A stretch of DNA of 64,000 nt from a bacterium (GTDB lineage: Bacteria > Hinthialibacterota > Hinthialibacteria > Hinthialibacterales > Hinthialibacteraceae). Shown piece after piece: positions 21,352-55,482 of the stretch. Location of the stretch: contig CAXXSM010000118.1 of assembly GCA_963663405.2 (NCBI GenBank), positions 1 to 64,000 on the forward strand, written 5' to 3'. Every line of letters begins with the position of its first letter. Position 1 is the first letter of the stretch. The translations under genes and the position numbers were made by a program. Below the pieces are notes generated by a model. The model saw only the letters and a list, made by a program, of their open reading frames with translations, was not told the origin of the DNA and ran no database searches.

Positions 21352-23001
21352 GGGTGTAACTCGCGCTCCGCGCTATGCAGCCTGTTCCCAGATTTCATTG
21401 ATCATCTCTCGATATGGATATAACTTATGAACGTTTTCTTGAATACGATGGTCTTGGAAAGCCTCCCAATCGTCATTGAGAAAGACGGCTCGCAAGTCCA
21501 ACATGGCTTGAGCGCCTTCGGTCCGCCAACGCATTCCTGTTCCTTCCATTCGATCCTTGACTAAGTGACGGCAAGCCCCTTCGACCACCCCACTCCCGAT
21601 GGGATAGCCAAACGCTAAATAATAATCATAGCGCATATACTCTCGGTTATTTTCCAAATACGTAATCACGCGCTCCAGCTGTCTCTTTTTTCGCCCCCCC
21701 GCAGACCTCGCTTGGTTTCCCATTTGTCTCAAGCCCACCAATCACTCGGCCCACTTGCCCTTCGAGTAAACGAGTCAGACGGAGTTTCACGAATGTTTTC
21801 CGCTTCTTCACTCCCTTCCGGAACGAAACAATAGGCGGCGCTCCACAGGGCGTTCCATGACGTGATAAATATCGATGATGCAGACGGTAATCGACTTCAT
21901 AGGCTTCGGCTTTTTTCCACAAACGCCCCGTTCCCCGTCCATCAAACAAACGACCGCTTTATTTCCAGCTGCATTCCGGATGTTTCAGTTCCTCCGCAAA
22001 CCATTGGAAGATTCGATCTTTTCCGTTGCTCTCTTCGCCTTCCATCTCTCTTGTCAGTTCCGCCCGCATCTGTTTGTGGCGCGGAACGGGGCGGTTTGCG
22101 CTCTGCTCCTTCCGGAAGATTTCATTCACCACGTCCTCCGCCTGACGAGGAAACGGATCGATTGTATACACTGCGCCTACACACGCTTGACGCTTTTTAT
22201 TCGCCTTTTCTCCTCGTTTCCGTCTCCCCGGCTCAACCGTCTCTTCCCGCCGCATCGGTACTCCCTTCCCATCCGCCGTGAGAACTAGAATCGAGCCCTC
22301 TTCTTCCGCGGCGGGTGTGGGCTGCGCCCAGCGAAACGCTTCCACCTCTTGCGCCATGGCGCCGTTCATATATTCCAGACTGCGAACCGACTGGCCAATC
22401 CCCAATATCCGTTCCAAGGTTTGACTGGATTGCTGATAAGAGTTTTGCACACAAAACGCCTGCGACCATTCTTGGAGTAAAAAGGAAAAATCACTTTCGG
22501 GTAAATTCAGCCGGGCGTCCAACGGAACCACCTCATGTTTTTGGCTCTCGCGAGTTCCATAGACCGTTCGGTTAATCATGATTTCACCAAAGACGGATAC
22601 ATACCGCTTTTCGTATTGCGTGTCCAAGCGGCGTAAGGTTTTCCCGTCCGGCTCAATGGTAGGACCGAGGTCGCCCGTTCCTTGCCGGTCGATCGTCTCT
22701 TCCAGCATGATTCGGCCAAGATTCATAAGACCGCTCCATAGCTCTTTCTCGATTTGATCGATTGGGATTCCGTTTTCGGCTGCTTCTTTCACCTCATTCC
22801 ACAACGCGGCAAACTGATCTTTCGACTTGAAAATTTCTCGTTCTTGTTCCATCATCAACCTGGGGCCTCATTTCAGTCAGGATATACATTGTTTTCATGG
22901 ACTAATGTTATACCTGTTGAGGCCCTTTTTAACAAGTCATAAATTACACTAACTATAATATAATCAATACTTTATGAAATCGAGCTCCGCGGGTTACACC
23001 C
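21352..23001 (-). mobile_element. ISKra4-family-like insertion sequence, 1650 bp
   Basis: Terminal IRs gggtgtaactcgcg / cgcgggttacaccc; 9-bp direct repeat AATGAAAAT at 21343-21351 and 23002-23010. Confidence 0.9.
21373..22858 (-). pseudogene. ISKra4-like DDE transposase, frameshifted into at least three pieces
   Basis: VPLDARLNLP, TADGKGVPM, KKRQACVGAVYTI, and C-terminal YMRYDYYLAFGYPIGSGVVEGACRHLVKDRMEGTGMRW. Confidence 0.85.
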
Positions 23002-28022: not shown

Positions 28023-28315
28023 AAATCAGTTTCATTTGTGTCTTACAGTGAAAGCAGTTAGGTTGGAAACGACGTTTATCAAGGAATAAATAGATGGTTT
28101 TTATATTATTTTGATAAGTTTATAGAAATTATTATGGCGCACTGATTTATTAAACAACTCAGCATTGGACGAAGCGGCTCCGCCGCAGAGTGTCGTACGC
28201 CGAATTTTCTAGTTGAACAATCCCCTTGCGAAATCTCCTGAGTTGTCATGTATTTCTTCTGAGAAGGCAGTGGCTGTAAGACTGCCAACCACTACTTATT
28301 TACAGGAGAAAGATC

Positions 28316-29163
28316 ATGAAATCATTACGGAAACGCATGATCGAAGACATGACGTTAGCAGGACTGAGCGAAGGCACGCAAAAAGCATACGTCCGAGCCG
28401 TCGCCTCATTCGCTCTAGAATTTGATTGCTCGCCAGAATGCATTAGCGAGGAACTCGTCCGGGTCTATTTACTGAATTTGCGAGACGTGAAGAAAGTCGC
28501 TCTCGGAACGTTTCAGGTCCACTACAGCGCGCTGAAATTTCTTTATCAAACCACGCTGGATCTGGGGTGGCCGTTGTTTGCAAAAAAAAGATTCGTAAGC
28601 CTCGCCAAAAGCGCCTGCCGCATTCATTAACCCATTCCCAAGTTCGCGCCCTCCTGGCCGCCGTCAGGAAAACGCCCTACCGGTTGGCTCTAACGTTGAT
28701 GTATGCGTGCGGCCTTCGGACCAGTGAAGTCATCTCTCTTCCGGTGCGGCAGATCGATTCCAACCAAATGAGTTTACGGATTATTGGGAAGGGCGATAAA
28801 GAGCGAATCGTTCCTCTCCCGGACACCTTGTTGGAGCCGATGCGTGAACTCTGGTTGATGCATCGCCATCCCACCTGGCTATTCCCCAACCAACAAGGCT
28901 CCAACCACATTCCCTCATCGACACTCGGCAAAGCGTTTCGCTTGGCCTGTAACGCTACCGGGCTGACAGACGATGTGAAGCCGCATTCGATGCGTCATTC
29001 GTTTGCCAGCAGATTGCTGGAGAACGGCGAAAGCCTGCGCGTTGTCCAGATTCTTCTCGGCCATTCCAGTATTCGTTCGACACAGATCTACACTCATTTG
29101 ACTGAGCCGCTTCGCCACGAGGCTCAGGATCGGATCAACGCCGTGTTCGCCGATCTGATGTGA
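28316..29163 (+). CDS. tyrosine recombinase: N-terminal SAM-like ORF (28316-28630) plus catalytic ORF (-1 frame, to 29163), joined at the A8 run 28582-28589
   Basis: LRKRMIEDMTLAGLSEGTQKAY SAM-like start; catalytic residues in YACGLR, GKGDKER, HSMRHSFA, LLGH, TQIYTH. Confidence 0.88.
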
Positions 29164-29172
29164 GGAGGAATC

Positions 29173-30339
29173 ATGAATTGCACTTCATCGAACCTCGAAC
29201 TCGGCGATGTGGTTCGCCGGTTTGGCCCGGCCTATATCCGGCAGCAAGGGAAGCGCCTTTTGCCCTCCCAGCGTAAAGCGCTGCACGATATCATGGCCTG
29301 TCATACGGCGGAACTGGGAGGGCATCGTTATCACTGTCAGGACTGCGGCGAAGACTTCTGGGTGTATCACGGGTGTGGCAATCGATCCTGTCCGTCCTGT
29401 CATTCCCAGGCGATGCGGCAATGGATCGAGAAGCGGGAAGACCAGATGCTTGGCTGCCGTTACTTTCATGTAATCGTAACAGTTCCGCAGTCTATCCGGG
29501 CGGCTTTCTTGGCTCATCAAAAGATTCTCTATGGGTTGCTGATGACGACGGCTGCTTCCTGTATCATGGATCTGATGCGCAATCCCCAAGTCGTTGGCGG
29601 GACCCCGGCGATCCTGGCCGTGCTGCACACTTGGCGGGGAGATCTGGAATTGCATCCACATGTCCATCTGTTGGTCAGCGCCGGCGCCGTGAGTGAGGAC
29701 GGCCACTCTTGGATGGAACTCCGCCACCCGAAATGGCTTCTCCATGTGGGAACGCTCAGCTTACTCGTTCGCCGGCGCTTTAAAGAACGGCTCGAAAAAG
29801 CGGCGCCGGAGATCTTCCAAGGCATCGAGACCAAGGTCTGGAATAGAGGCTGGAACTCGTTCTGCAAACCGTATGGCAAAGGCGTGAAAGCCATCTTGAA
29901 TTACCTGGGGCGCTATGTCTATCGCATCGCGATCTCCAACCACCGGCTTCTGGCAATGGACGCTACCCACGTGACGTTCCGCTACAAGACCTTCAAAGAG
30001 AAGCATTGGCGAACTCTCCGCTTGCCGGGCGAAGAATTTCTGCGGCGCTTCGTGATGCATGTGCTCCCCCGCGGCTTCCATAAAGTCCGCTACTATGGGC
30101 TGTGGCATCACTGTCATCGGGACACACGCAATCGAATCCGTTTGCTCCTCGCCCCCAAGGCGGAGAGCGTTTCTATTCCCGAATCGGTTGAGAATTCCAT
30201 CGTTTCAAAAGAGACCAACGACAAAGCAGTATTCGATCGGACCGGCCAAGAATCGGCGCCGGAATGGCCTAAATGTCCGCGTTGCAAAAGCTGTAACGTG
30301 ATTGTCATTGAAACCCTCAATCGGAATCGAAGCCCCTGA
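29173..30339 (+). CDS. IS91-family rolling-circle (Y2/HUH) transposase with N-terminal Zn-binding domain
   Basis: CHTAELGG..CQDC..CGNRSCPSC, HTW..LHPHVH (HUH), YLGRY (YxxxY), HVLPRGFHKVRYYG, C-terminal CPRC. Confidence 0.93.
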   Translation: MNCTSSNLELGDVVRRFGPAYIRQQGKRLLPSQRKALHDIMACHTAELGGHRYHCQDCGEDFWVYHGCGNRSCPSCHSQAMRQWIEKREDQMLGCRYFHVIVTVPQSIRAAFLAHQKILYGLLMTTAASCIMDLMRNPQVVGGTPAILAVLHTWRGDLELHPHVHLLVSAGAVSEDGHSWMELRHPKWLLHVGTLSLLVRRRFKERLEKAAPEIFQGIETKVWNRGWNSFCKPYGKGVKAILNYLGRYVYRIAISNHRLLAMDATHVTFRYKTFKEKHWRTLRLPGEEFLRRFVMHVLPRGFHKVRYYGLWHHCHRDTRNRIRLLLAPKAESVSIPESVENSIVSKETNDKAVFDRTGQESAPEWPKCPRCKSCNVIVIETLNRNRSP

Positions 30340-30534
30340 TCGATTCCGATTGTAAGCATCGCGATGGTAATATAAAGAAATTATAACTTTACGCGGGAAG
30401 ATTTTTTTACTTTTCTTGCCGTGAGGGGATTTCTATAGCTTCAAGAGGATTTTCTCTTTCTAAACTATCAACTTCTCTTCCTCAATTAAGCCGTTTCGCG
30501 AATAAATGGCGTGTTATTGGTTCTCACATTCCCC

Positions 30535-30605
30535 CCGCACTTCGTCCAATAGAGTTTGTATCTCGGCTTCGCTCGATAAAAACTCCTATCTATTGGACGA
30601 AGCGG
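30535..30605. other. junction hairpin (attC-like / oriIS-like recombination site), complete only between the two copies
   Basis: cttcgtccaataga (30540-30553) is the exact reverse complement of tctattggacgaag (30589-30602); inner stem gagtttgtatc/gataaaaactc has one mismatch. Confidence 0.7.
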
Positions 30606-30743
30606 CTCCGCCGCAGAGTGTCGTACGCCGAATTTTCTAGTTGAACAATCCCCTTGCGAAATCTCCTGAGTTGTCATGTATTTCTTCTGAGAAGGCAGTG
30701 GCTGTAAGACTGCCAACCACTACTTATTTACAGGAGAAAGATC

Positions 30744-31591
30744 ATGAAATCATTACGGAAACGCATGATCGAAGACATGACGTTAGCAGGACTGAGCGAA
30801 GGCACGCAAAAAGCATACGTCCGAGCCGTCGCCTCATTCGCTCTAGAATTTGATTGCTCGCCAGAATGCATTAGCGAGGAACTCGTCCGGGTCTATTTAC
30901 TGAATTTGCGAGACGTGAAGAAAGTCGCTCTCGGAACGTTTCAGGTCCACTACAGCGCGCTGAAATTTCTTTATCAAACCACGCTGGATCTGGGGTGGCC
31001 GTTGTTTGCAAAAAAAAGATTCGTAAGCCTCGCCAAAAGCGCCTGCCGCATTCATTAACCCATTCCCAAGTTCGCGCCCTCCTGGCCGCCGTCAGGAAAA
31101 CGCCCTACCGGTTGGCTCTAACGTTGATGTATGCGTGCGGCCTTCGGACCAGTGAAGTCATCTCTCTTCCGGTGCGGCAGATCGATTCCAACCAAATGAG
31201 TTTACGGATTATTGGGAAGGGCGATAAAGAGCGAATCGTTCCTCTCCCGGACACCTTGTTGGAGCCGATGCGTGAACTCTGGTTGATGCATCGCCATCCC
31301 ACCTGGCTATTCCCCAACCAACAAGGCTCCAACCACATTCCCTCATCGACACTCGGCAAAGCGTTTCGCTTGGCCTGTAACGCTACCGGGCTGACAGACG
31401 ATGTGAAGCCGCATTCGATGCGTCATTCGTTTGCCAGCAGATTGCTGGAGAACGGCGAAAGCCTGCGCGTTGTCCAGATTCTTCTCGGCCATTCCAGTAT
31501 TCGTTCGACACAGATCTACACTCATTTGACTGAGCCGCTTCGCCACGAGGCTCAGGATCGGATCAACGCCGTGTTCGCCGATCTGATGTGA
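30744..31591 (+). CDS. tyrosine recombinase, copy 2 (same -1 split at A8 31010-31017)
   Basis: Translations identical to those of 28316-29163. Confidence 0.88.
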
Positions 31592-31600
31592 GGAGGAATC

Positions 31601-32767
31601 ATGAATTGCACTTCATCGAACCTCGAACTCGGCGATGTGGTTCGCCGGTTTGGCCCGGCCTATATCCGGCAGCAAGGGAAGCGCCTTTTGCCCTCCCAGC
31701 GTAAAGCGCTGCACGATATCATGGCCTGTCATACGGCGGAACTGGGAGGGCATCGTTATCACTGTCAGGACTGCGGCGAAGACTTCTGGGTGTATCACGG
31801 GTGTGGCAATCGATCCTGTCCGTCCTGTCATTCCCAGGCGATGCGGCAATGGATCGAGAAGCGGGAAGACCAGATGCTTGGCTGCCGTTACTTTCATGTA
31901 ATCGTAACAGTTCCGCAGTCTATCCGGGCGGCTTTCTTGGCTCATCAAAAGATTCTCTATGGGTTGCTGATGACGACGGCTGCTTCCTGTATCATGGATC
32001 TGATGCGCAATCCCCAAGTCGTTGGCGGGACCCCGGCGATCCTGGCCGTGCTGCACACTTGGCGGGGAGATCTGGAATTGCATCCACATGTCCATCTGTT
32101 GGTCAGCGCCGGCGCCGTGAGTGAGGACGGCCACTCTTGGATGGAACTCCGCCACCCGAAATGGCTTCTCCATGTGGGAACGCTCAGCTTACTCGTTCGC
32201 CGGCGCTTTAAAGAACGGCTCGAAAAAGCGGCGCCGGAGATCTTCCAAGGCATCGAGACCAAGGTCTGGAATAGAGGCTGGAACTCGTTCTGCAAACCGT
32301 ATGGCAAAGGCGTGAAAGCCATCTTGAATTACCTGGGGCGCTATGTCTATCGCATCGCGATCTCCAACCACCGGCTTCTGGCAATGGACGCTACCCACGT
32401 GACGTTCCGCTACAAGACCTTCAAAGAGAAGCATTGGCGAACTCTCCGCTTGCCGGGCGAAGAATTTCTGCGGCGCTTCGTGATGCATGTGCTCCCCCGC
32501 GGCTTCCATAAAGTCCGCTACTATGGGCTGTGGCATCACTGTCATCGGGACACACGCAATCGAATCCGTTTGCTCCTCGCCCCCAAGGCGGAGAGCGTTT
32601 CTATTCCCGAATCGGTTGAGAATTCCATCGTTTCAAAAGAGACCAACGACAAAGCAGTATTCGATCGGACCGGCCAAGAATCGGCGCCGGAATGGCCTAA
32701 ATGTCCGCGTTGCAAAAGCTGTAACGTGATTGTCATTGAAACCCTCAATCGGAATCGAAGCCCCTGA
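31601..32767 (+). CDS. IS91-family Y2 transposase, copy 2
   Basis: Translation identical to that of 29173-30339. Confidence 0.93.
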   Translation: MNCTSSNLELGDVVRRFGPAYIRQQGKRLLPSQRKALHDIMACHTAELGGHRYHCQDCGEDFWVYHGCGNRSCPSCHSQAMRQWIEKREDQMLGCRYFHVIVTVPQSIRAAFLAHQKILYGLLMTTAASCIMDLMRNPQVVGGTPAILAVLHTWRGDLELHPHVHLLVSAGAVSEDGHSWMELRHPKWLLHVGTLSLLVRRRFKERLEKAAPEIFQGIETKVWNRGWNSFCKPYGKGVKAILNYLGRYVYRIAISNHRLLAMDATHVTFRYKTFKEKHWRTLRLPGEEFLRRFVMHVLPRGFHKVRYYGLWHHCHRDTRNRIRLLLAPKAESVSIPESVENSIVSKETNDKAVFDRTGQESAPEWPKCPRCKSCNVIVIETLNRNRSP

Positions 32768-33020
32768 TCGATTCCGATTGTAAGCATCGCGATGGTAATA
32801 TAAAGAAATTATAACTTTACGCGGGAAGATTTTTTACTTTTCTTGCCGTGAGGGGATTTCTATAGCTTCAAGAGGATTTTCTCTTTCTAAACTATCAACT
32901 TCTCTTCCTCAATTAAGCCGTTTCGCGAATAAATGGCGTGTTATTGGTTCTCACATTCCCCCCGCACTTCGTCCAATAGAGTTTGTATCTCGGCTTCGCT
33001 CGATAAAAACTCCTATCTAT

Positions 33021-33935
33021 TTACTCACAATTAATGACGGTTCCCAGGTTATAGGCTTTAAGAAAACGAACTTCGGATTCCATCCCGTATGAGGTAAAAA
33101 CTTCCCGCATCGCTTCGCCGATGCTTTCCCGATTCCGCTGTGTGACCGCCATCATCGTTGATCCGGAACCGCTCAAATACCCCCCAATGGCTCCGGCTTC
33201 TCTCGCGGCGTGGATCACGTCGAAGAGAGGTTTTAGCGCAGGGATCTTCGCTTGCCGATCGATTTGATGAAGCCGGTCCTCGAATAAATCCCCCATGCTT
33301 TCGTAATCCCCTTTTGCGAAAGCGAGCGCAAGAAGCGCAGCGTGATTGACGTTGAAGACCGCATCTTCTCGTGGGATTGTATCCGCGAACACGACACGGG
33401 CCTTATCGGTTTCAACCGCCTGCGAGGGCCAGACCGCGACGAAGTCGAGTGTGTTTGGAATTTCGCATTTATAGCAATAGAGTTTTCCGTTTACAATCCC
33501 CGATGCGGTCATTCCCCCATAAAATGAAGCGGCCGCGTTATCCGTGCAAGCCTCTAATTCCGAAACGATGGTAACAAGCTTCCGATCGGAAATCTCAGCC
33601 GCAAGCATCGCGTTCAATCCAGCCACCACAGCGATCCGGAACGTGGCGCTGCTGGCCAATCCACGCGCAATAGGCACATTGTTATCCACTTTCAGCGTAA
33701 AATGCGTCTCTGGAAGACCGGTCTTTTCGAAGAAATACCGCGCCGCATACTGGATCATCTTTTCGCATGGCTCATGCAACGCTGGATCAATCCCACAATT
33801 TTCATCTAACACAGTCTCTGAATCATTTTGTATTAACTCAAATGAATTCAGAAGATTAACAGCTATGCCCAGCGTATCAAATCCTGGGCCTAGATTAGCG
33901 GACGAAGCGGGCACATGGATTGTAACTGTTTTCAT
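33021..33935 (-). CDS. thrB: homoserine kinase
   Basis: VPASSANLGPGFDTLG, VPIARGLASSA GHMP motif, DNAAA, EDRLHQ, LSGSGST. Confidence 0.92.
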   Translation of the reverse strand: MKTVTIHVPASSANLGPGFDTLGIAVNLLNSFELIQNDSETVLDENCGIDPALHEPCEKMIQYAARYFFEKTGLPETHFTLKVDNNVPIARGLASSATFRIAVVAGLNAMLAAEISDRKLVTIVSELEACTDNAAASFYGGMTASGIVNGKLYCYKCEIPNTLDFVAVWPSQAVETDKARVVFADTIPREDAVFNVNHAALLALAFAKGDYESMGDLFEDRLHQIDRQAKIPALKPLFDVIHAAREAGAIGGYLSGSGSTMMAVTQRNRESIGEAMREVFTSYGMESEVRFLKAYNLGTVINCE

Positions 33936-34110: not shown

Positions 34111-34134
34111 AAAAAAAACAATGTGTTAACGTTT

Positions 34135-34200
34135 CTATTCTTCCAAAAAATAATCAAAATCGATTTTCTTGATTTCGTAGGTGGATTCAACCAAAACGCT
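34135..34200 (-). repeat. diverged second copy of the last ~21 codons of mrr (direct repeat of 34898-34963)
   Basis: Encodes SVLVESTYEIKKIDFDYFLEE* versus GVSIESTYEIKKIDFDYFLEE* in mrr. Confidence 0.85.
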
Positions 34201-34227
34201 GCTCTCATATTCTATTCTTTTAACGTA

Positions 34228-34529
34228 TTTACCGATAAGACGTAAACTCGGTTTCCGGATCTTCTCGTCCCAAAATTCGAAGAATAATAATTTCATCAGG
34301 ATCAATCCGGTAATATATTGAATGGACTACGGTAAACACAACGCCGCAATCCGGCTCGAATATGGGAAACCGCTGGCCAACGCTGTGGATATTCGGTTAG
34401 ATCATCTAGTTGTTCGTACAATCCATCAACATACGTATCTGCTTGTTCCAGCCCAAATTTCTCAAATCCGAAAACGAATAAACGATCAATATCAGCATCA
34501 GCGGCGTTTGTTAGTCTATATCTCGCCAT
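34228..34529 (-). pseudogene. parE: ParE/RelE-family toxin, frameshifted near 34324
   Basis: YRLTNAADADIDRL..FGLEQADTY..P..HIRAGLRRCVY. Removing one C gives SHSIYYRIDPDEIIILRILGREDP. Confidence 0.8.
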
Positions 34530-34774
34530 CGGCTTTCAAACGTTTTTTTTGCCGCCTCTACAATCTGTTGTGGTGTCCGGTTACTCATTCCACTCTGTTC
34601 ACCTTCGATGATAGCGGCGCGGATCATTTCAATTTCTTCGATTCGAGTCTGTTTCTCACGGATTAAATCACGCAATAACTCACTCTCATTACCATATTTA
34701 CCGCTCTCAATTTGAGACTTAATCCAAGCGTCTTGTTGATCGGTTACCGTAATACTTTTTTTGACCATCCCCAT
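34511..34774 (-). CDS. parD: ParD-family (RHH) antitoxin; C-terminus probably shifted by an extra A
   Basis: KKSITVTDQQDAWIKSQIESGKYGNESELLRDLIR..IRAAIIEGEQSG; overlaps the parE start. Confidence 0.85.
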   Translation of the reverse strand: MGMVKKSITVTDQQDAWIKSQIESGKYGNESELLRDLIREKQTRIEEIEMIRAAIIEGEQSGMSNRTPQQIVEAAKKTFESRWRDID

Positions 34775-34897
34775 GATTCTGCCTCCAAGAAAACACACGA
34801 TAATATACTAATATATCCTATATTATCGTATCCTAAAAGCAAAAATCGACTTTTATTTCTCAAAAAGAAAGTATCATGAAACTTTGGATTTTCTTTC

Positions 34898-35819
34898 CTA
34901 TTCTTCCAAAAAATAATCGAAATCAATCTTCTTGATTTCGTAGGTGGATTCAATTGAAACGCCGATATTATAATCAATCATATACTGCGCGAGAGCCTCT
35001 CCATCAATCAGAATGATTTTTGAATCCATTTTTCCCACACATTCAGTCGCCTGACTTGTGAAATCAGAAGTCGTGATGAAAATTCCTTTTTTAGCATGAT
35101 GCATTTGTAAAGCGCCAGCAAATTTTTGGATTTCAGGACGAGAGACGCTCCCTTCCCAACGTTTGGCTTGAATATAGATCACATCCAATCCCAACCGGTC
35201 TTCCTTGATAATCCCATCAATCCCCCCATCACCGCTTTTCCCAACCGCCTGCCCGGCGTCTTTCAAAGTTCCCCCATACCCCATTTTCACAATCAACTCA
35301 ACAACGATTCGTTCAAAATAAGCGGGGGAAACTTTCTTCAATTGATCCAACAACTCAGACGCTAATTCATTTCTGATCTTTTGGTATCCATTTTCCAACG
35401 CCTCTAATGGTTGTAATCTGATCATCTTTTTGCTCAATCTCGTCAGTACTACTTTGATCTTTACTATCATTTAAGCGTCTTTCTTTAAATTCAATAAATT
35501 CAGGAAATTTCTTTAAATAGTCATTATCGATTTTAGCAGGATTCTGTTGAAGAACATCCAATCCTCTTTGTGTAATTTTCACAATTCCTCTTGATGGATT
35601 ATCAACAAGACCCGCTTTTTTTAAATATACTTTCGCCCAAGAAACCCTATTTTCAAATTTCGATTGTCGACCGCTTGGTACAAGTACTTTTAAGTCATCA
35701 TCTGAGAGATCCATTTCCTCAGCCATTCTGTCATAAACTTCACGTATCCGATGATCTTCTTGATCAGAGCAGAATTTCAAAATGGGTAACATGAATTGTT
35801 GATAATCTGGAACAGCCAT
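34898..35819 (-). pseudogene. mrr: Mrr type IV restriction endonuclease, frameshifted near 35411
   Basis: Mrr_N (VPDYQQFMLPIL..PSGRQSKFENRVSWAKVYLKKAG) and Mrr_cat (SPAYFERIV..SGDGGIDGII.EDRLGLD.IYIQAKRW) lie in different frames. Confidence 0.88.
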
Positions 35820-35847
35820 TTCATTACCCTTAATAATAAGATTCAAC

Positions 35848-37569
35848 TCACTTCTCAATAAACTGCTTCATTCGCTTCAATCCCTCGCGGATGTTCTCCA
35901 TCGATGTGGCGAAAGAGAGCCGGATATATTCCTGGTCTTCCCCCTCATTGCGGCGTCCGAAGCAGGTTCTGGGAAGGACAGCGACGCCCGCTTGTTCCAA
36001 TAGGGCTTTCTGCAATTCATTAGCGGTCCGCAGACCAAGGCGGCGGCAGGCTTCGGTTACGTTAGGGAAAACGTAAAACGCGCCCTGCGCGGGCAGGCAT
36101 CGGACACCATCAATACCATTTAGCAATTCCACAATAATACGGCTGCGCTGGCTGAACTGTTCAATCATATATTGAGATTCATGGTGCGGGCCTTCGAGCG
36201 CGCTGACGCAGGCGATTTGTGAGAACGAGCAAGTGCAGCTGTCGATGTTGGTTTCAATCTTGGCCACATGTTTCGCCAGTTCACGGTTCATGACGCCGTA
36301 TCCCATCCGCCAGCCGGTCATCGCGTACGTTTTTGAGAATCCATCCACGATAATCGTCCGCTCCTTCATCCCCGGAAATCCAACAACGGAATGAAACTCG
36401 GAATCAAAGATGATCTGCGAATAAACCTCATCAGAAATAATCCAAAGATTATTCTCAACCGCAAGTCGCGCGATCTCTCTCAATACCTCGATCCCTAGAA
36501 GCGTTCCTGTCGGATTCCCAGGCGTATTGAGAACGATTAACTTGGTTTTCGACGTAATCCGTGAAGCGAGATCGTCAACACTGAAGTTCCAATTCCGCTC
36601 TTCCAACATTGGAAGCGGGATCGATCTCGCCCCAACCCAATCGATCACAGATTCGTAAATCGGATAGCCGGGATTGGGGTAAAGCGCTTCATCTCCTGGA
36701 TTGAGAAGCGCCATCATCACATCAAAAACAATCGGCTTGGCCCCCGGCGTTACAACCACTTCATCCGGATCAACCGGAATGCGGCGGGTGCGTTGCATAT
36801 ACCGGGCGATGGATTCCCGCAGTTCAGGAATCCCCGCGCTGGGACAGTAGTGCGTCTGATTCTCATCCAACGCCCGTTTAGCCGACTCCTTAATATGCGA
36901 TGGAGTGTCAAAATCCGGCTCGCCCAGACCGAACGAGATAATATCCCGCCCTTCAGCGCGCAGTTGATTCACCTCGGCCAACACATCAAACGCCGTCTCG
37001 GTCCCAAGTTTTGACATCCGTTCGGCTAAGGAAGGAAGACTCGCGCTTGGTTGTATATCAAAGAGCCGCGATCCTGAAAGTGGAGCGGTAATCCATAACG
37101 GTTTATTCCCCCCAGCGCGATGAGCGGTGAAGATCGATTCGAGATCAATAAGTGACAAGTTTTCGCAAGTATGAATCGTCCAGCGCGGAGAATCGACCGG
37201 CTCGATTGGACAGATGACAATGACCTGATCCGATAATCCATCACGAATTCGCGAGATCGAAACCGTGTCACTTTGATCCACTAGGCAAAAGAGACGGCGG
37301 GGATACGGCATTGTGGCTAGACAGATATCAAGCGTATCAAAACCCGCCGCGGGAAGATCCTTCGGACCACAGCCCATTCTCAGAAACGCTTCCCGAACAA
37401 CTTCCGCATAAGCTTCCGAAAAGAGCAACCGGTCCCCTCCTTCCCACATGGGATTCCCTGGATCGATTCTCATCTCAGCAAATAGAATCCCTCCAACCGC
37501 ATTGACAAGGGCTTCCGGACGATTTCCTTTACGCAGTTTTTCTATTTTAGTAACAAGATCGGCGCGCAT
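35848..37569 (-). CDS. class I/II PLP-dependent (aspartate-like) aminotransferase with a ~180-aa N-terminal extension
   Basis: GLGEPDFDTP, VTPGAK, LNTPGNPTG, ISDEVY, DGFSKTYAMTGWRMGY, GAFYVFP, YIRLSFA. Confidence 0.88.
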   Translation of the reverse strand: MRADLVTKIEKLRKGNRPEALVNAVGGILFAEMRIDPGNPMWEGGDRLLFSEAYAEVVREAFLRMGCGPKDLPAAGFDTLDICLATMPYPRRLFCLVDQSDTVSISRIRDGLSDQVIVICPIEPVDSPRWTIHTCENLSLIDLESIFTAHRAGGNKPLWITAPLSGSRLFDIQPSASLPSLAERMSKLGTETAFDVLAEVNQLRAEGRDIISFGLGEPDFDTPSHIKESAKRALDENQTHYCPSAGIPELRESIARYMQRTRRIPVDPDEVVVTPGAKPIVFDVMMALLNPGDEALYPNPGYPIYESVIDWVGARSIPLPMLEERNWNFSVDDLASRITSKTKLIVLNTPGNPTGTLLGIEVLREIARLAVENNLWIISDEVYSQIIFDSEFHSVVGFPGMKERTIIVDGFSKTYAMTGWRMGYGVMNRELAKHVAKIETNIDSCTCSFSQIACVSALEGPHHESQYMIEQFSQRSRIIVELLNGIDGVRCLPAQGAFYVFPNVTEACRRLGLRTANELQKALLEQAGVAVLPRTCFGRRNEGEDQEYIRLSFATSMENIREGLKRMKQFIEK

Positions 37570-54306: not shown

Positions 54307-55482
54307 ATGAAATTTAAGTATTGGCGTTTAATTCCATGGCTCACCGCTACACTCCTCGTGGGATTCTTTCTCTATCTAACGTGGGGTTCATCCATTCCCC
54401 CGATGATCGCTGCGGTACAATCCGGATCACTCGAAAAAGTACAAAAATGTATTCGCTATCAAGCGGATCTGAACGCTCGCAGGCAAGATGGTTTCACTCC
54501 CCTTATGCTCGCGGTGACGATGGGCCGGGACGATATGGTTCAAGCCTTAATTGACGCAGGCGCCATAAGCAATGATGAAAATGTGTTATCACTAGCTATA
54601 CGCTTTGATAAACCAGCCTGTATAAAGGCGCTGGCCGACGCGAACGTGGATATAATCACCACCGCGATTCATCCACAATTACTCAGAGCGATTCACAATA
54701 ACAGTGTTGAATGCGTAAAAATCCTTCTTGATCATGGCGCGGATGTCAATCAATTTTATTACGACGATTTTCCATTGCTGATCGCTTGCCAAAAAAATTC
54801 GATCGAAATCGTTAAAATTCTATTGGAACGGGGCGCCAAAGTGAATGGTGTTCTTGCGGAAGTGGCGGACCAGGATGATTTTGAGATCTTTGAATTATTA
54901 CTCGCCCATGGAGCGGATATCAATGAAACAGGCATCTCCAACAAAAGCCGATTGCTCCGTTTTACGCCCTTATCGTTCGCTGCGTACAAAGGGAAATTAA
55001 AAAATATTCAATTCTTTCTTGACCATGGAGCGAAATTCAAACCCGCGGCAAAAAACCAATGGAACGCGCTTCGAAATGCGGCTCATAATGGTCATCTTGA
55101 AGTGGTCAAATTCCTCTTTGAGAAAGATCTTGATACACAAGGCGCTCTCGTCTCCGCGGCGCAAAATGGTCATCTTGCAGTGGTCAAATTTCTCTTGGAG
55201 AAACACGCCGATCCCAAAGGCGCTTTAGCCTCCGCGGCGTCAAAAGGCCATCTCGAAGTGATGAAAGTCCTCTTACAACACGGGGTGGATTCGAACGAAC
55301 TCCATGCCGCTCTCAGGGCGGCGGTCGCTCTTGGACAATTGGACGCGGTTCAGTTATTGATTGATTCAGGTGTGGATGTCAACATACGAAACCAGGATGG
55401 GAAAACCGCCCTGCAATGCGCGATTGAATACAAAGATGTCGAAATCGCGAACCTCCTCAAACAAGCCGGCGCAGTCGAGTGA
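54307..55482 (+). CDS. ankyrin-repeat protein with an N-terminal membrane anchor
   Basis: Repeated TPL..A...G...V..LL..GAD motifs. Confidence 0.9.
   Translation: MKFKYWRLIPWLTATLLVGFFLYLTWGSSIPPMIAAVQSGSLEKVQKCIRYQADLNARRQDGFTPLMLAVTMGRDDMVQALIDAGAISNDENVLSLAIRFDKPACIKALADANVDIITTAIHPQLLRAIHNNSVECVKILLDHGADVNQFYYDDFPLLIACQKNSIEIVKILLERGAKVNGVLAEVADQDDFEIFELLLAHGADINETGISNKSRLLRFTPLSFAAYKGKLKNIQFFLDHGAKFKPAAKNQWNALRNAAHNGHLEVVKFLFEKDLDTQGALVSAAQNGHLAVVKFLLEKHADPKGALASAASKGHLEVMKVLLQHGVDSNELHAALRAAVALGQLDAVQLLIDSGVDVNIRNQDGKTALQCAIEYKDVEIANLLKQAGAVE

Follow-up and report, generated by a model that had tools for sequence, protein, structure and literature searches.

A head-to-tail dimer of an IS91-type element with an asymmetric inverted repeat linking its ends and a recombinase gene whose reading frame changes at a run of adenines

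How do two nearly identical copies of a mobile element come to lie head to tail with nothing between them? The question is raised by positions 28164..33021 of a 64,000 nt stretch of bacterial DNA (positions 1 to 64,000 of contig CAXXSM010000118.1, GenBank assembly GCA_963663405.2; hereafter the window), where two IS91-type copies of 2,428 and 2,427 bp, each with a tyrosine recombinase region preceding a transposase gene, follow each other without a spacer. This arrangement, reported in a first-pass annotation of the window, was borne out here in the assembly: the copies differ solely by one extra T in copy 1, in a homopolymer of seven (30402-30408, + strand) that has six T in the other near-identical copies and is likely a consensus error or a slip. 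Our tentative answer is a single insertion, during which a circular intermediate copied in rolling-circle fashion failed once to terminate.

The genome (8.44 Mb in 170 contigs) was searched for further copies, as the first-pass annotation had proposed, and contains 15 with both ends, 13 of them uninterrupted and two broken by other insertions, besides several fragments. Eight of the 12 other uninterrupted copies show 0-1 substitution with respect to copy 2, indicating a recent spread and thus supporting the recent activity claimed for the element. The middle junction of the dimer is the only end-to-end junction in the assembly, and it is exactly the join of right end and left end predicted from the dispersed copies. 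This agreement supports the rolling-circle or circle-derived origin put forward earlier, although the sequence does not tell which of the two routes was followed.

The dimer had also been taken to fix the ends of the element, with a 3-bp ATT shared at the boundaries. The dispersed copies define them better, and the core is TT. Comparison of the distinct flanks (16 left, 15 right) leaves TT as the only sequence that they have in common; the base before it is A in 13 of the left flanks, and the other three have C, G or T. Because this base varies, the unit consists of 2,427 bp and a single TT; the left core of the dimer is at 28165-28166, and 28164 belongs to the target. There is no target-site duplication, TT alone being shared. 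The base following TT (position +1) is T in 13 of 15 flanks, and position -8 from TT is A in all 16 distinct left flanks (p 1.7e-8 with the A content of the flanks themselves, 33%, as background; 28 positions examined), which for the dimer is host position 28157 (+ strand). An additional flank in sequencing run X1, outside the ends present in the assembly and read by hand, has A at -8 too. The signal is weaker in relatives, with A or T in 43 of 64 flanks and A alone in 20, and -8 is A in four of the ten flanks of the multi-copy family of genome G063. Comparison of the base after the internal arm (see below) with the target base, as in guide-like pairing, gave no clear rule. Incidentally, the empty target of one copy (G000:C118:107167-109597) lies within a strong palindrome (fold z -4.2), the sole case among 13.

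The first-pass annotation saw no conventional pair of terminal inverted repeats, which is true of the termini themselves, but a subterminal inverted repeat does exist. The first 10 nt of the element (left terminal arm, 28165-28174 in copy 1, + strand) recur as a perfect inverted copy some 50 nt inward of the right end, at 30540-30549 and 32967-32976 in copies 1 and 2, followed by a terminal stem-loop (30552-30585 in copy 1; arm plus stem-loop span 32967-33012 in copy 2) that by its position may be oriIS-like. The small hairpin announced some 10 bp inside the left end is present at 28174-28186, overlapping the end of the arm, and would likewise be terIS-like by position. Across the end-to-end junction, with its TT at 30593-30594, the inverted repeat reaches 14 bp (subterminal arm 30540-30553, + strand, with 30589-30602), so that joining the ends closes a 14-bp stem. 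The junction folds with z of -4.7 and -3.7 on the two strands, as against -0.9 to +1.1 at the outer ends, which fold no better than shuffled sequence. In circles of IS3 and IS30 a promoter is formed at the junction; a sigma-70 scan of the junction found none here, and no Rfam family matched.

For comparison of the ends we fetched 160 related loci. Where the upstream sequence was long enough (79 loci), the left motif occurs in 74; the right motif occurs in 62 of 85, and the inner arm is 50-53 nt from the end in 67 of the 71 loci having both ends. Since the end motifs served as search patterns, their invariant letters prove nothing and only the variable ones are informative. Among 65 end types, arm position 7 is paired throughout, by G-C in 50 and by T-A in 15, and in the transposase tree the T-A state is found on four or more distinct branches (judged by eye). 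Position 4 has G-C in 63 end types, with C-G in the other two, and position 8 is paired in just 45. In the inner stem of 36 right ends, pairing is 85% in one register versus at most 49% in the 19 others, and several pairs have changed on both sides. Judged from these alignments, the inverted repeat covaries across relatives. The left hairpin and the right stem-loop are conserved as well. Furthermore, relatives include non-coding mini-elements of 102-105 bp in which nothing remains but the left end, inner arm and right stem-loop: four at different sites of G063 (L220, L222, L224 and L228) and one, L181 (G045:C25:74584-74705), whose right end has been interrupted by an insertion. A hand count gives the interrupted end its normal 51-nt length again with a single TT, in agreement with the lack of target duplication.

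The transposase (388 aa; 29173-30339 and, in copy 2, 31601-32767, both + strand) is predicted from profile matches to be an IS91-family HUH (Y2) enzyme, with 343.8 bits for NF033538 (cut-off 125) and further matches to PF04986 and PF14319. The motif H161-P-H163 and tyrosines Y244 and Y248 are present, these histidines and tyrosines being invariant across 62 aligned transposases, and a domain search found no helicase domain in the 388 residues. On this sequence evidence, the element is assigned to the recombinase-bearing subgroup of the IS91 family. A 13-bp inverted repeat spans the transposase stop codon (30318-30352 and 32746-32780). The contigs that carry most of the close transposase relatives (P0001-P0120) measure 1.3-3.5 kb, roughly the length of one element, which is what circles or multi-copy repeats would produce.

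The tyrosine recombinase claimed upstream of the transposase was confirmed by its domains (PF13495 and PF00589), although not as a single open reading frame (ORF). A 5' ORF of 104 aa encodes the SAM-like DNA-binding domain (28316-28630, + strand; PF13495, E 1.6e-17), and the catalytic ORF, with the R-K-H-R-H-Y residues, continues in the -1 frame (28567-29163, + strand; PF00589, E 8.5e-41), the switch taking place at a run of eight adenines (A8; 28582-28589, + strand). The gene in copy 2 (30744-31591, + strand) is split in the same way, with A8 at 31010-31017. Sequencing error or decay was ruled out as the source of the frameshift by the presence of A8 in all 16 copies spanning the run, including those of 95% and 89% identity, and by the split in 104 of 125 relatives. 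These are the distinct cases among 132 loci, out of 162, with adjacent recombinase halves: the second half is in the -1 frame in 91, in the +1 frame in 13 and in frame in 21. The +1 form includes a clade of eight, and one locus counted in it, L024, is -1 at the site itself. At least seven adenines occupy the switch in 101 of the 104 shifted genes versus none of the 21 in-frame ones. Among 127 relatives with 1 kb of upstream sequence, the upstream recombinase is complete in 116, partial in eight and absent in three; the six catalytic residues are retained in 126-127 of 127, which argues that the full-length protein is under selection.

No downstream RNA structure that could stimulate frameshifting was detected (z -0.65 and -0.09). 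Mixed +1 and -1 directions have been taken to favour transcriptional slippage in transposase genes (PMC3711429). By the same reasoning, and given the mixed directions and the lack of a downstream structure, we favour transcriptional slippage as the way in which the A8 switch would be read. The main product would then be the short DNA-binding protein, with full-length recombinase made in small amounts; the latter might serve as an accessory enzyme, and joined ends or multimers would be its most plausible substrates. The conservation of the switch also means that such recombinases are likely to be misread as pseudogenes. As to its relatives, recombinases of IS91 elements are the closest homologs of the integron integrase IntI and lack the IntI insertion (bioRxiv 10.1101/542381). 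The insertion is lacking here too: IntI model TIGR02249 matches only in two separated stretches, 88-176 and 231-303, with 127 bits against a cut-off of 265.

Before asking how the dimer arose, it has to be considered whether it resides in the chromosome, which we think probable. A comparison of read depth, proposed in the first-pass annotation, gave a contig depth of 2 for the flanks and of 26-39 for the element in the two best runs (X1 and X2, whose contigs may derive from the source sample); these values fit about 15 copies and cannot resolve one more. Reads from a free circle or concatemer might therefore have been threaded by the assembler through a single chromosomal copy, an explanation that would suit a 15-copy repeat. 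It would suit as well the low flank depth, the lack of any piece across the middle junction among the contigs listed for X1 and X2, and the single-base homopolymer indels of several copies, which point to a low-depth long-read consensus. Conversely, the X1 and X2 contigs enter the element for 28-29 letters from both outer flanks, which is below the 31-letter rule for bridging. No empty-site joint is listed among the run contigs and no paralogue of the empty site among the matches listed in this genome (other strains were not searched). Additionally, dispersed copies have just 2-3 nt in common at the join, which we infer is too little for an assembler to invent it. Because the join is exact and so little sequence is common to the copies, the junction most likely derives from real joined ends, in the chromosome or in a circle, and an exact junction would need them even if the assembly were wrong. 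We regard an assembly artefact as unlikely.

A single insertion with missed termination would proceed by analogy with IS91. The Y2 transposase would nick the bottom strand at the right end, and the nicked strand would be peeled off and closed at the left end into a single-stranded circle, which would then insert at a TT. Pairing or binding of the left arm and the subterminal arm may bring both ends together, and the dimer junction would be the junction of the circular intermediate. In IS91, circles with joined ends occur, it is the bottom strand that inserts, and termination is missed in 1-10% or 1-14% of events (PMC13181058). One dimer in about 14 insertion events is within this range, a weak comparison with n = 1. 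The outer flanks of the dimer match the target consensus at -8, -1 and +1, while the inner junction, considered as the target of a second insertion, departs from it with C at -8 or G at +1. We favour one insertion because the outer flanks follow the consensus and the inner join does not, and because IS91 misses termination at a few percent. A chance landing on a resident end would have a frequency of about 1% (some 28 ends among 33,457 A-N6-A-TT-T sites, times 14 events). Several results weigh on the other side, including the missing piece across the junction mentioned above. The searches for a second full dimer found none: true junctions numbered zero in 24 genomes with 56 left ends, where a single match lacked the hairpin by eye. 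Searches of 401 genomes of one phylum, in which element carriers were not counted, retrieved only one junction, that of a mini-element, and viral contigs yielded none; many of the searched genomes are short-read assemblies, which would collapse a dimer. Likewise, copies at separate places share no left flank, the sole repeat being a twin 458 bp away on C103, and read-through from chromosomal donors is therefore not seen here. Finally, three relatives (L181, L140 and L066) show insertions at or beside resident ends and so favour re-insertion.

Such re-insertion belongs to an alternative that is possible, if somewhat unlikely, and nearly as good as missed termination: a copy already in place gained a monomer circle, either through transposase-mediated insertion at its end or through host homologous recombination across the 2.4 kb of identical sequence. 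In G045 an inner TT of the right end of the 102-bp mini-element L181 is occupied by a full copy, L140 consists of a right end, 14 nt and a left end, and L066 has its last ~109 bp repeated directly after the right end, although none of the three is an exact join. A single crossover would also leave copies identical but for one homopolymer base, as observed. The sequence of the resident ends speaks against insertion by the transposase, since a right end would lack the A at -8 found in 16 of 16 flanks elsewhere and a left end would offer G at +1, seen in none of 15; the route through homologous recombination is unaffected by these mismatches. More improbable, in our estimate, is that the recombinase rather than the transposase made the join, with the folded single-stranded junction behaving as an attC site that was recombined at the end of the resident copy. 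The targets, A(A)-N6-TT, do have a spacing like that of a tyrosine-recombinase core; against this, the A at -8 is not general in relatives, as given above, and the targets are not attC-like. The relationship of the recombinase to IntI and its retained catalytic residues would agree with such activity, whereas the missing IntI insertion would not. In the junction, arms resembling R boxes and a stem are present, the boxes match the attC core RYYYAAC/GTTRRRY except at C/G, and the break falls after AA on the bottom strand, as in attC (PMC5027507). However, the bulge is one-sided, of 5 nt, extrahelical bases are not evident in the inner stem, and Helentrons show the same layout of ends with no recombinase.

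Homing to attC sites, by insertion in the R'' box, was rejected for this set because none of 13 empty sites in the genome is attC-like (relatives, 1 of 39; control TT positions, 4 of 117). A wider version of the recombinase hypothesis, which we consider speculative and unlikely, is that recombinase-bearing IS91 elements are self-contained cassettes, in which an HUH enzyme would make the single-stranded circle, joining of the ends would make an attC-like hairpin, and a slippage-gated relative of IntI would integrate it at AA-N6-TT. If true, this would provide the orphan recombinase with a function, suggest how integron cassettes may have originated, and connect the ends of bacterial IS91 elements with those of Helitron2.

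Two further candidates among the relatives were discarded. L084, considered as a natural junction, has no intact right end. L200, a circular sequence of 4,862 bp labelled "plasmid" (NZ_CP155766.1), is neither a bare circle nor a dimer, as it contains one element plus cargo; its annotated genes are only the recombinase and the IS91 transposase, together with an unannotated ORF of 450 aa, and it may be an excised circle with cargo. In this genome, two copies in the same orientation lie 674 bp apart (G000:C27:38596-44133), a possible composite unit. Another copy (G000:C103:19125-22063) is inside a spacer of an array of about 94 clustered regularly interspaced short palindromic repeats (CRISPR) and in turn contains an insertion of 501 bp, an element with inverted ends and at least nine genomic copies; the array has two further gaps of 1.5-1.6 kb.

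Within the window, the dimer is inserted between two intact convergent genes and touches the stop codon of thrB (33021-33935, minus strand). The right TT core (33020-33021) reaches only the last base of this codon, at 33021, and therefore neither neighbour is broken. Further along, a ParD/ParE pair (34302-34798; parE is short, 75 aa) is flanked by two 100-bp repeats of 80% identity (34116-34978), and an Mrr-type restriction gene is split into overlapping N-terminal and catalytic ORFs (34898-35858). Other features are an ORF of 299 aa with a weak match to UPF0236, possibly a truncated transposase (21959-22858), and two tandem coding repeats of 78 bp, 79% alike (55078-55233).

Tandem products of rolling-circle elements are known, and the dimer would be an ordinary product of this kind; its interest rests in the traits of the subgroup. 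Being the joined-end form of an active element, it is the exact substrate with which the role of the subgroup recombinase can be tested, and our literature search found no paper that settles this role. Neither the frame switch nor the asymmetric repeat was found described for the subgroup in the literature covered, which did not include ISfinder, TnCentral or the main insertion sequence reviews, where they may be recorded. Moreover, Helitron2-like ends in bacteria, along with mobile mini-elements of 102-105 bp, define the needs in cis and offer a compact model, in bacteria, of an end type whose descriptions to date come from eukaryotes.

The element resembles the characterised members IS91, IS801, IS1294 and IS1294b in its Y2 HUH transposase with a zinc-binding domain, in circles with joined ends, in its two unlike ends with subterminal palindromes, and in the lack of target duplication (PMC13181058). 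It differs in the asymmetric inverted repeat linking the ends, in its upstream gene, which is a split tyrosine recombinase and not orf121, and in its target, which is TT with an upstream A instead of a tetranucleotide (CTTG/GTTC/GTCC) (PMC13181058). The TT target thus separates it from these four members, not from the IS91 family as defined by NCBI. It falls in the subgroup with an integron-like recombinase, exemplified by ISMno24 on NC_011892.1, in which the recombinase also directly precedes the transposase (bioRxiv 10.1101/542381). The two transposases are 35% identical, and the left end of ISMno24 opens with the same motif as those of the in-frame relatives; its recombinase, however, is annotated as a single coding sequence of 861 bp with no A7 in the first 500 bp, in contrast to the split at A8 seen here.

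The frame switch itself recalls the programmed frameshifting of insertion sequence transposases, with a conserved A run and mixed +1 and -1 directions, but there the split gene is the transposase, and the words integrase and recombinase are absent from the main text of that work (PMC3711429), whereas here the recombinase is split. Integron cassettes share with the element a hairpin completed only on joining of the ends, a bottom-strand break after AA and a related recombinase (PMC5027507), and ISShvi3 has been noted beside an attC site (PMC9229058). Unlike them, the element has a recombinase without the IntI insertion and a one-sided central bulge, it forms no cassette array, and a search with the IntI model found no integron integrase above the cut-off in this genome. 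In end layout the element matches Helitron2/Helentron and HINE/DINE-1 elements, which have an inverted repeat of roughly 12 bp located at the 5' end and again 38-60 bp inside the 3' end, a 3' stem-loop, a short 5' hairpin overlapping the repeat, a TT target, mini-elements, joined ends and tandem copies (PMC4067079, PMC5148889). That layout works in them without any recombinase; these elements are eukaryotic and encode a Rep-helicase fusion and no tyrosine recombinase (PMC4067079, PMC5148889). As the present element has no helicase, it is not a member of Helitron2, and the resemblance is a likeness in the layout of the ends.

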